A DNA stretch of 64,000 nucleotides from a virus: positions 3,987 through 67,986 of IMG/VR virus record IMGVR_UViG_3300017963_000273; one strand, given 5' to 3'. Of this stretch, positions 3,296 through 44,989 are shown piece after piece. Made by a program: the position numbers and the translations under genes. Every line of letters starts with the position of its first letter. Position 1 is the stretch's first letter. Below the pieces are notes generated by a model that saw only the letters and a list, made by a program, of their open reading frames with translations, was not told the origin of the DNA and made no database searches.

Positions 3296-3312
3296 TATGT
3301 TTCCTTAAATTT

Positions 3313-3399
3313 TGGAAGCGCGAACGGGGGTCGAACCCGCAAGCCCCTAGAGGCACCTGAGTGAAAGTCAGATTGCTTTACCATTTCGCATACCGCGCC
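3313..3399 (-). tRNA. tRNA-Glu(TTC) with class-II-like body (long V arm)
   Basis: TCTGA-CT-TTC-AC-TCAGG; V arm GCCT-CTAG-GGGC; U73; CCA. Confidence 0.85.
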
Positions 3400-4718: not shown

Positions 4719-4752
4719 AAAAAAGGTGACCGTCTTTATGATGATCACCTCT
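4719..4752 (-). terminator. Attenuator terminator of tRNA array 1
   Basis: GAGGTGATC..GGTCACCTT hairpin plus U6, 20 nt before the first tRNA. Confidence 0.85.
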
Positions 4753-4780
4753 AAAAAATTTATATCTTTAAAATCTATTT

Positions 4781-4876
4781 CTATAGAAGTGATCGATGCA
4801 TGGAATCAGTATCCACGATATCATGATCGTGTTCTACTGTTTCAATAATTGTAGTGGTTGTATTAACTACTAGCAT
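4781..4876 (-). CDS. Leader peptide 1, MLVVNTTTTIIETVEHDHDIVDTDSMHRSLL (31 aa)
   Basis: AGGAG RBS; 21 of residues 3-24 are V/T/I/E/H/D, the amino acids of the downstream tRNAs; 3' end complementary to the terminator arm. Confidence 0.88.
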   Translation of the reverse strand: MLVVNTTTTIIETVEHDHDIVDTDSMHRSLL

Positions 4877-4896
4877 CTTTCGCTCCTATTTGTATT

Positions 4897-4971
4897 TTCT
4901 TAAGTTTATTTATAACTTTTCAATTATTTTTTCGTTGTTATAATATAACCTAAAAACTATAAAAGTATAGT
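4897..4971 (-). promoter_or_regulatory. 75-bp tRNA-array promoter, copy 1 (early-like CTATAC-N16-TTATAT plus late TATAAATA)
   Basis: Identical to 44435-44509. Confidence 0.85.
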
Positions 4972-4992
4972 TGTTTGATTAAAATTTTTAAA

Positions 4993-36020: not shown

Positions 36021-36096
36021 GACAATATTTATATTTTCAAAATAGAAAATCAAATTATTTATAAATAAATATGAAAACTAAAGAGGAGATTTCATA

Positions 36097-44173: not shown

Positions 44174-44259
44174 TGGTGGTGCGGGTAGGAATCGAACCTA
44201 CGATGTTTCTAATGTAACTGTTTTACAGACAGCGTCCTTCGCCGCTTGGATACCACACC
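44174..44259 (-). tRNA. tRNA-Tyr(GTA), first tRNA of array 2
   Basis: GCTGT-CT-GTA-AA-ACAGT, A73, CCA. Confidence 0.9.
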
Positions 44260-44280
44260 ATATTTAAGAATTTGCCCAAT

Positions 44281-44306
44281 AAAAAAGGCGAGCTTTGTAG
44301 CTCGCC
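44281..44306 (-). terminator. Attenuator terminator of tRNA array 2
   Basis: GGCGAGCT-ACAA-AGCTCGCC-TTTTTT, 21 nt before the first tRNA. Confidence 0.9.
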
Positions 44307-44338
44307 AGTAACCGGGGGGAGATTATTTAATATCCATT

Positions 44339-44419
44339 TTAGTCACAGCGAGCTTGCATTAGCGAATAGCTCCAAGATTGGAGTTGACTAAGTAAATATT
44401 GCTGTGATAAAATGTTCAT
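44339..44419 (-). CDS. Leader peptide 2, MNILSQQYLLSQLQSWSYSLMQARCD (26 aa)
   Basis: AGGA RBS; residues 4-20 are exclusively L/S/Q/Y/W, the amino acids of the downstream tRNAs; 3' end pairs with the terminator arm. Confidence 0.9.
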   Translation of the reverse strand: MNILSQQYLLSQLQSWSYSLMQARCD

Positions 44420-44434
44420 ATTAGTTTCCTAAAA

Positions 44435-44509
44435 TTCTTAAGTTTATTTATAACTTTTCAATTATTTTTTCGTTGTTATAATATAACCTAAAAACTATAA
44501 AAGTATAGT
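44435..44509 (-). promoter_or_regulatory. 75-bp tRNA-array promoter, copy 2
   Basis: Identical to 4897-4971. Confidence 0.85.
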
Positions 44510-44533
44510 AGCTTTAAATAAATTTTTAACTCC

Positions 44534-44989
44534 TTACATTTTATTTAAATATGCGTTAGCTATTCGAGGTTTAAGTTTATTTAATGCTTTATTAAGATCT
44601 GAACCTCTAATAATTCCTGGTCTTTCATAGACTATAGTTTCATTACCAGCTTTAATACTGGAAAATCTAACTTTTACTAAATCTTCAGTAACAATAACTT
44701 CTAAAAATATAATAATTGGCGTTTTGATAAAATTATCTGCTTTATCCCTATAAGATACTGTAGTTACAATTTGTGGTAGGCCCCCACCACGATTAACTAA
44801 TTCATTTGGTTTAATTTTATCTTTTATTTTAGCTAAAATCAACTGTTTAATTTCAGTAGGTAATAATTCATCTTCAGTTGACATAACAAAATCATCAACT
44901 TGAATTTCATCAAATTCACTAAAAAACTTATCATATAACTTATTAAAAGTTGGAACTTTAAAAGCTTCTGTTAATTTACAAAATTTCAT
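44534..44989 (-). CDS. EAFK-family putative internal head protein
   Basis: MKFCKLTE-AFK. Confidence 0.7.
   Translation of the reverse strand: MKFCKLTEAFKVPTFNKLYDKFFSEFDEIQVDDFVMSTEDELLPTEIKQLILAKIKDKIKPNELVNRGGGLPQIVTTVSYRDKADNFIKTPIIIFLEVIVTEDLVKVRFSSIKAGNETIVYERPGIIRGSDLNKALNKLKPRIANAYLNKM

Follow-up and report, generated by a model that had tools for sequence, protein, structure and literature searches.

A large marine phage in which each tRNA cluster seems to be turned on only when a leader written in the cluster's own codons is translated slowly

Leader-peptide attenuators are known from the amino-acid operons of enterobacteria, whose leaders include trpL, hisL, leuL, thrL, ilvL and pheL, and also from pheST (pheM). 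Leaders that mix codons exist among them, such as thrL (Thr and Ile) and ilvL (Leu, Val and Ile). A T-box recognises a single uncharged tRNA by direct binding, with no ribosome involved, and the genes under its control are those for synthetases, transport or biosynthesis. The leaders of the Tn916 tet(M) and erm/cat type control resistance genes and respond to drugs; for the tet(M) leader, a response to the supply of charged tRNA for rare codons has been proposed. Phage tRNA genes are usually discussed as helpers in codon usage or as replacements for tRNAs destroyed by defences, and to our knowledge the control of their expression is largely unknown. Here we describe an element of 150 nucleotides (nt) on the minus strand (44281 to 44430) of a 64,000-nt stretch of virus DNA, hereafter the window, which comprises bases 3987 to 67986 of the 67,986-bp IMG/VR contig IMGVR_UViG_3300017963_000273 (positions are those of the window, except for some features given in contig or L005 coordinates). 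The element stands in front of a tRNA array and is probably a ribosome-mediated transcription attenuator of the trp/his/thr type that gates this array and not biosynthetic genes. In this large marine phage, each tRNA cluster thus seems to be on only when a leader written in the cluster's own codons is translated slowly.

The element shares with the enterobacterial attenuators a short open reading frame (ORF) that is led by a Shine-Dalgarno (SD) sequence and carries the regulatory codons, an intrinsic terminator, an antiterminator strand masked by a ribosome at the stop codon, and a pairing of region 1 with region 2 that yields termination in an untranslated leader. It departs from them in its target, since the downstream genes are tRNAs and no biosynthetic gene follows, so that the sensed molecule is also the product. 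Furthermore, the sensor is not homopolymeric but mixes five to seven amino acids at one to five codons each, and the device is phage-borne, lies behind a T4-type late motif and divides the tRNA set among three matched copies of itself. Like T-box riboswitches, it would combine the sensing of tRNA charging with a terminator/antiterminator switch, but it would do so with a translated ORF. Rfam at the gathering threshold gave tRNA matches only, and no T-box, in the whole window, and at E ≤ 1 over 41900 to 44560 it gave nothing in the leader and no riboswitch model. As in the Tn916 tet(M) and erm/cat leaders, the speed of leader translation would decide between termination and readthrough, whereas those leaders are not matched to downstream tRNA genes.

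The trn operon of Anabaena sp. PCC 7120 contains 26 tRNA genes, is induced by translational stress and is repressed by TrcR (PMC10272220). It resembles the present locus in being a silent tRNA array that is turned on when translation is impaired (PMC10272220). Its control, as described in the main text of that article, is exerted by a ribbon-helix-helix repressor at the promoter, and the strings 'leader', 'attenuat' and 'terminator' are absent from this main text (PMC10272220). In contrast, control at the phage locus would reside in a cis-acting leader ORF and a terminator, with a codon-specific sensor for each array. A reason for replacing particular tRNAs in infection comes from the finding that phage tRNA genes counter tRNA-cleaving defences (PMC11555353); the part of that article drawn on here concerns the role of the tRNAs and not the control of their expression. 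In the full-text literature, outside subscription-only papers and supplements, we found no description of a leader-peptide attenuator on a tRNA array, and 'tRNA array' and 'leader peptide' occurred together in 0 papers. The attenuator reading, in which known hardware serves an unprecedented target, tRNA genes, is well supported computationally, by three paralogues, one diverged orthologue and alternative structures that agree.

Read along the minus strand, the module consists of a promoter block, the sequence AGGA, a 26-codon ORF, a 32-nt spacer, a terminator hairpin and, after 21 nt, the first of 14 tRNA genes. The promoter block (44432 to 44530), 52 nt of which are identical to a block at 4897 to 4948, contains a sigma-70-like TTAAAA-16-TATACT (44529 to 44502), a TTGAAA-16-AAGAAT (44461 to 44434) and the T4-type late-promoter motif TATAAATA (44452 to 44445), which we take to be the T4 late-promoter consensus. 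The SD sequence AGGA (44427 to 44430) is followed 7 nt downstream by the ATG of the leader ORF (44339 to 44419), which encodes MNILSQQYLLSQLQSWSYSLMQARCD in 26 codons and ends with TAA. Its codons 4 to 20 (44360 to 44410) form the sensor run of 17 consecutive Leu, Ser, Gln, Tyr and Trp codons. The intrinsic terminator predicted in the sequence-only reading, GGCGAGCT-ACAA-AGCTCGCC-T6, was found at 44306 to 44281 with 8 pairs, 6 of them G-C, and a stability of −14.0 to −14.6 kcal/mol; as RNA it reads GGCGAGCU-ACAA-AGCUCGCC followed by U6 and ends 21 nt short of the first tRNA. It therefore lies between the leader ORF and the tRNA genes, and the SD-led short ORF lies downstream of the promoter and directly upstream of the genes to be regulated, a layout that is kept, together with the AGGA, in the related metagenome contig L006. 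A separate promoter between the terminator and the first tRNA was considered and rejected, because a gap of just 21 nt leaves no space for it and because no sigma-70-like site was found on the minus strand from the leader start to the first tRNA. The 150-nt element as a whole folds with a z score of −4.48 against dinucleotide shuffles, none of which (0/200) folded as well.

The codons of the sensor run mirror the tRNA genes that follow. The 17 sensor codons named in the sequence-only reading proved to be exactly leader codons 4 to 20 (44410 to 44360), and with standard wobble all of them are decodable by the 12 anticodons of array 2, although four Ser anticodons come from weak candidates. Only the anticodon CAA (codon TTG) is unused by the leader, which does hold five different Ser and four Leu codons, as had been noticed. 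Of the 16,422 codons in the 50 long ORFs of the contig, 23% can be decoded by array 2, which gives a probability of about 1.4 × 10−11 for a 17-codon run, and the next-longest such run was 9 among the 365 ATG-started ORFs of 20 to 60 codons in the six frames of the contig. The leader is thus enriched in codons that would report on decoding by the genes it would regulate.

The arrangement of promoter, leader, terminator and array occurs in two further copies in the contig. Module 1 (4719 to 4991, minus strand) has the same promoter block (4897 to 4991, 94% identical over about 95 nt with a 52-nt identical core), a leader ORF encoding MLVVNTTTTIIETVEHDHDIVDTDSMHRSLL and a stop (4876 to 4781) and a terminator (4749 to 4719), behind which array 1 (4698 to 1187, minus strand) encodes Ile, His, Thr, Glu, Asp and Val tRNAs. 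Module 3, whose promoter block lies outside the window (contig 2831 to 2923) and is 96% identical, comprises the leader MFTINNRRGMKPGFNPAKPRCFFLRPCL with its stop, a terminator and array 3 of Gly, Ala, Asn, Phe, Lys and Pro tRNAs, which leaves the contig end. When the codons of each leader were scored against arrays 1, 2 and 3, respectively, leader 1 had 22, 5 and 1 decodable codons of 30 (binomial tail, 1.5 × 10−5), leader 2 had 2, 18 and 1 of 25 (2.8 × 10−7), and leader 3 had 2, 2 and 14 of 27 (0.012). The matrix is sharply diagonal: each leader fits its own array and not the others.

A fourth copy of the promoter block, 77% identical and also outside the window (contig 3296 to 3389, L005 coordinates), serves as a natural control. 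It drives a gene for a 116-codon protein and directly precedes this ordinary gene, without a leader or a terminator. The block is therefore a promoter module, to which leader and terminator are an add-on specific to tRNA arrays.

The relative L006, a 4983-bp metagenome contig with a neighbouring protein 51 to 54% identical to that of the window, carries the same module: a promoter block in which TATACT and TATAAATA are kept and TTGAAA is not, the AGGA, an ORF encoding MNILSQQSLYSLYLQSWSYLLMRARCD and a stop, a terminator, and then Tyr, Trp(CCA), Gln, Leu and Ser tRNAs. Ten tRNAs were called there by ARAGORN, and 10/10 belong to the five types. Regions 2, 3 and 4 of the switch are those of the window except for one loop base of the terminator, and the helix of regions 1 and 2 has, by eye, one mismatch and one G-U more than in the window. 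In the sensor run, 12 of the 51 aligned bases differ and one in-frame codon (TTG) has been gained, with changes that include Tyr to Ser, Leu to Tyr, Gln to Tyr and Ser to Leu; still, all 18 of 18 codons are Leu, Ser, Gln, Tyr or Trp codons, an outcome matched in 2 of 200,000 trials of 12 random substitutions (P of about 10−5). The set of codons has been kept, their order has not. As judged from these alignments, selection is acting on which tRNAs read the run, and not on the peptide, and also on the RNA strands of the switch, a pattern that one would look for in an attenuator leader.

The sequence-only reading had further proposed that 44354 to 44341 pairs with 44313 to 44299 over 14 bp with one bulge and thereby excludes the terminator, and RNAduplex recovered this pairing at −20.3 to −21.0 kcal/mol. 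Region 2 (44340 to 44355), which spans the final codons of the ORF and runs into its stop codon, would provide the 5′ strand of the predicted antiterminator and would be covered by a ribosome at the stop codon; region 3 (CGGUUACUGGCGAGCU, 44299 to 44314) can take either region 2 or region 4 as its partner. In 3/3 modules, the stronger alternative partner of the terminator's 5′ arm is provided by the last five to seven leader codons. The antiterminator and terminator energies were −16.4 and −10.1 kcal/mol for module 1, −21.0 and −14.6 kcal/mol for module 2, and −17.4 and −16.3 kcal/mol for module 3. Among 2000 genome windows, the fraction pairing as well was 0.018, 0.0035 and 0.0095, and the duplex ended at ORF base 94 of 96, 80 of 81 and 82 of 87, for modules 1, 2 and 3, respectively.

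To place a ribosome on the leader, a footprint was masked that reached from 15 nt upstream to 12 nt downstream of the first base in the A-site codon, and the transcripts were cut before the terminator's 3′ arm. In these folds the antiterminator formed with A-site codons 1 to 18 in module 2, 1 to 24 in module 1 and 1 to 19 in module 3, and it was lost once the ribosome stood on the last codons or the stop (codons 19 to 27 in module 2). The run of own-array codons in module 1 stops at codon 24, which equals the antiterminator limit. In the ribosome-free, full-length module 2, codons 3 to 7 (region 1, AUUUUAUCACAGC, 44401 to 44413) paired with the 3′ end of the ORF, that is, with region 2, and the terminator formed, in both the minimum-energy and the centroid fold. 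The modelled RNA thus has an antiterminator that excludes the terminator and, in the 1:2 pairing, an anti-antiterminator.

From the anatomy, the codon statistics, the paralogues and the conserved codon set, we infer coupling, stalling and a choice between termination and readthrough as follows. Transcription would start in the shared promoter block, with its sigma-70-like −10 and its T4-type late TATAAATA, and the use of the host core polymerase would couple translation to transcription; a ribosome would then load onto the 26-codon leader. If it passed quickly over the Leu, Ser, Gln, Tyr and Trp codons, the ribosome would reach the last codons and the stop and cover region 2, the terminator would form, and transcription would halt 21 nt before the tRNAs. 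When charged tRNA for any of these codons is scarce, the ribosome would lag in codons 4 to about 18, leaving region 2 free to capture the nascent region 3 (−21 kcal/mol); this pairing would block the terminator and let the polymerase enter the array that encodes exactly those tRNAs. If no ribosome were present, region 1 would pair with region 2 and the terminator would form.

The outcome would be negative feedback with tRNA supplied on demand, the tRNA complement being split into at least three regulons with a leader of their own. Because the output would relieve the signal, the loop would be homeostatic. Possible triggers are the demand of late genes in an AT-rich genome, the loss of host tRNA synthesis and, as a speculation, tRNA cleavage by host defences. 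As no codon is used more than three times and the run mixes five amino acids, the device probably integrates transit time over the array's whole codon class, not over one tRNA. We give roughly even chances to the more far-reaching proposal of a closed-loop tRNA homeostat, in which a near-complete tRNA set is held in at least three regulons, a collapse of decoding is sensed by codon class through the leader of each regulon, and the missing tRNAs are made; host shut-off, late-gene demand or host defences that cleave tRNAs could bring about such a collapse.

The coupling would require a polymerase that a ribosome can follow. The contig has 33% G+C and an estimated 29% share of its genome, and T4-like genes in the window encode a terminase, sheath, tube, baseplate wedge, a UvsY-like protein and helicases. 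The sheath is 28 to 31% identical to T4-superfamily sheaths; the phage is only distantly related to T4, and the motif TATAAATA in it is probably a T4-type late promoter. The motif TATAAATA occurs in 31 copies in the contig against about 12 expected, and about 20 of the 31 lie 17 to 32 nt upstream of SD-led ORF starts, including those of sheath, tube, baseplate and adaptor genes (for example, at window positions 36060 and 54221 on the plus strand and 16259 and 6536 on the minus strand). This distribution, with the T4-superfamily sheath, supports late transcription by the host polymerase as read from sequence. A T4-type late motif would imply the host core polymerase, which uses intrinsic terminators and which a ribosome is able to follow. 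A phiKZ-type promoter and nucleus, which would forbid coupling, was also considered and rejected: no phage multisubunit polymerase or nucleus-shell gene was seen in the 29% of the genome covered, and the late motif is T4-like.

The near one-to-one match of codons to anticodons and the variety of Ser and Leu codons in so short a leader had been taken as a sign of isoacceptor-level sensing, and this part of the sequence-only reading was not supported. Given the peptide and the phage's synonymous codon usage, the effect is not significant (P of about 0.05 to 0.3). Leader 2 covers 11 of the 12 anticodons (P = 0.053 to 0.058) with 13 distinct codons (P = 0.011), and the L006 leader covers 10 anticodons (P = 0.30); for leaders 1 and 3, isoacceptor coverage gave P values of 0.82 and 0.33, and the three leaders jointly gave 0.051. 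The match to the amino-acid set is overwhelming, and the match to isoacceptors is a hint at most. What stands of that interpretation is a leader-peptide attenuator that would sense Leu, Ser, Gln, Tyr and Trp decoding, on the strength of its anatomy, its two matched paralogues and L006.

The same figures bear on whether the hardware could answer another signal, such as amino-acid starvation, aminoacylation failure or generally slow elongation, with tRNA synthesis as a side effect. Isoacceptor coverage that is no better than phage codon usage predicts (P = 0.05 to 0.8) fits such a signal, and a stalled ribosome, as in the trp and his attenuators, cannot distinguish low from uncharged tRNA. We nevertheless regard this explanation as unlikely. 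In each of three independent modules, the genes under control are the very tRNAs by which the sensor codons are read, a pairing with no obvious selective reason if tRNA cannot relieve the signal, and this pairing of leader with array is kept in L006.

Several observations count against the attenuator reading. Leader 3 matches its array in only 14 of 27 codons (P = 0.012), a weak match that is due to array 3 running off the contig end; its unmatched codons are mostly Arg (AGA, and CGA three times), Met (ATG) and Cys (TGC and TGT) codons and CCT, and they therefore predict tRNAs in the off-contig part of array 3, none of them with a specificity of array 1 or 2. Under the masked footprint, a ribosome at sensor codons 19 and 20 (TCG and CTA) in leader 2 already covers part of the antiterminator strand, and stalls there may not signal. 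With one to three occurrences per codon, sensitivity to the loss of a single tRNA species is uncertain. Four of the 14 tRNAs of array 2, all of them Ser (GCT, GGA, TGA and CGA), are below the thresholds of both ARAGORN and Rfam, and transcription from an internal TATAAATA at 42738 may supply the distal part of this array independently of the attenuator. L006 is a single relative with identical stems, so that neither antiterminator nor terminator shows a compensatory change. Finally, in equilibrium folds of module 2 that include the whole terminator, the probability of the terminator stem was 0.58 to 0.99 at every ribosome position. The switch appears in the models only if the antiterminator forms first, co-transcriptionally, which is the classical assumption but still an assumption.

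Equilibrium folds that retain the terminator in nearly all states are what one would expect of a fixed leaky terminator, or of an element for the processing or stability of a tRNA precursor, with an ORF that encodes a micro-protein or is untranslated and with no switch at all. We consider this very improbable. It leaves unexplained why three leaders use the amino-acid set of their own array, why 12 of 51 bases have changed in L006 without leaving that set, and why the strongest partner of the terminator's 5′ arm lies at the last ORF codons; moreover, the sole indel in L006 is one whole codon, which keeps the frame. Least credible is a ribosome-free, multi-specifier analogue of the T-box, in which leader RNA binds the anticodons of free tRNAs directly: leader codons are indeed complementary to array anticodons, but the leader has, and has conserved, a well-spaced SD, an ATG, a run in frame and a stop that falls within the antiterminator strand; the L006 indel is in frame, no T-box or other riboswitch model matches, and contacts of only three bases are too weak unless a ribosome or a T-box scaffold holds them.

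In the search for relatives, the protein search returned three proteins, of which one was that of the window itself and the others had 51% and 26% identity, and the metagenome scan yielded one locus only, L006. Among GenBank phages, blastn gave isolated tRNA matches at 76 to 87% identity and no relative. No relative was found in IMG/VR by neighbouring protein, sheath, protein alignment, promoter pattern, terminator pattern or conserved-array-RNA pattern, and the promoter pattern was not found in GTDB genome contigs. In a generic scan for upstream ORFs matched to tRNAs, the four leaders of the contig and L006 each ranked first in their own loci. The same scan was applied to three other phage loci rich in tRNA genes, those of Aeromonas avDM6, Pantoea AAS21 and Vibrio BBMuffin (20, 54 and 58 candidates, respectively), and none of their 132 candidate ORFs had a P value below 0.0096; a tRNA-matched leader is therefore not general to phage tRNA clusters. 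A further locus, L010 (CAKLQH020000005.1, 148201 to 178239), was left out of this comparison. Although filed as 'Acinetobacter phage MD-2021a', it carries bacterial chromosomal annotation (nusA, infB, secG, nuo/mrp and gsp) and looks like host sequence within a phage collection.

If the homeostat is real, it would be the first attenuator whose sensed molecule is its product and would supply the first cis-regulatory logic for phage tRNA arrays. The phage would be reusing the oldest known RNA switch to gauge decoding capacity, with feedback on tRNA synthesis for three amino-acid groups separately, which would amount to a testable model of on-demand tRNA supply in infection. As a natural and compact sensor of how fast particular codons are translated, the leader could also serve as a reporter. 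A small ORF that mirrors the tRNAs downstream of a terminator would provide a simple search signature for more cases.

Array 2 (42030 to 44259, minus strand) was delineated with ARAGORN, Rfam and a reading of the sequence. Its 14 tRNAs are Tyr GTA (two), CCA, Gln TTG, Leu TAG, Leu CAA, Leu GAG, Ser GCT, Leu TAA (two), Ser GGA, Ser TGA, Gln CTG and Ser CGA. ARAGORN called ten of these at 44259 to 42346 (GTA twice, CCA, TTG, TAG, CAA, GAG, TAA twice and CTG), in agreement with Rfam. The four Ser-type tRNAs (43300 to 43214, 42829 to 42742, 42513 to 42427 and 42116 to 42030, minus strand) have G-CCA ends, long variable arms and unusual T loops, e.g., GGCAGAU and AUCGACA, and in their folds the anticodon loops hold GCU, GGA, UGA and CGA. 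Three of them match only the Rfam tRNA-Sec model, at 43.8, 32.1 and 28.5 bits against a gathering score of 47; in the GGA candidate, the acceptor, anticodon and T stems were recognised by eye only, and the minimum-energy fold is not a cloverleaf. The L006 orthologue of Ser-GCT was called by ARAGORN. Judged by these features, the four are genuine but weak candidates.

The tRNA with the CCA anticodon (44056 to 43969, minus strand; L006 1535 to 1449, minus strand) is of class II shape, with a long variable arm that is paired, and its discriminator is G73. Its body resembles the Ser type more than a normal bacterial tRNA-Trp, and this shape is kept in L006.

Two conserved structured RNAs and three small ORFs are also contained in array 2. 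One RNA is tRNA-like and ends in ACCA (43800 to 43670, minus strand; L006 about 590 to 470, minus strand). It has a bulged G in the acceptor stem, a T arm with the loop UUAAAAU and, at the position of the anticodon loop, a 39-nt insertion that folds to an 8-bp hairpin. By eye, several stem positions vary in a compensatory manner between the window and L006; neither Rfam nor ARAGORN made a call for this RNA. The other, a structured RNA of about 190 nt (43498 to 43301, minus strand; L006 about 1126 to 935, minus strand), lies between tRNA-Leu(GAG) and tRNA-Ser(GCT) and has the closing stem GCGAACC/GGUUCGC; its 5′ half is highly conserved in L006, and Rfam at E ≤ 1 was empty for it. The embedded ORFs, all on the minus strand, encode a 37-amino-acid (aa) hydrophobic peptide (42946 to 42833), a 63-aa Cys-rich zinc-ribbon-like protein with its own TATAAATA (42707 to 42516), and a 76-aa protein with CPC..C..CPC..CHC motifs (42339 to 42109).

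Array 3, outside the window, holds a 264-codon ORF (contig about 2087 to 1296, minus strand) that is Cys/His-rich and by eye looks like a homing endonuclease. An 80-nt tRNA-like element (contig 2418 to 2339, minus strand, L005) has a good T arm, a CCA end and an odd anticodon region, and it gave a weak partial match to a tmRNA model (20.9 bits against a gathering score of 47). Comparison of two DNA sequencing runs with the contig start yielded a 4142-nt assembly contig that overlaps contig bases 1 to 89 and may extend past this start. Two near-identical tRNA-Phe(GAA)-like genes (contig 1214 to 1039 and about 600 to 438, minus strand, L005) show T-T mismatches in the acceptor stem, and the stretches of about 100 nt upstream of them seem, by eye, to be related.

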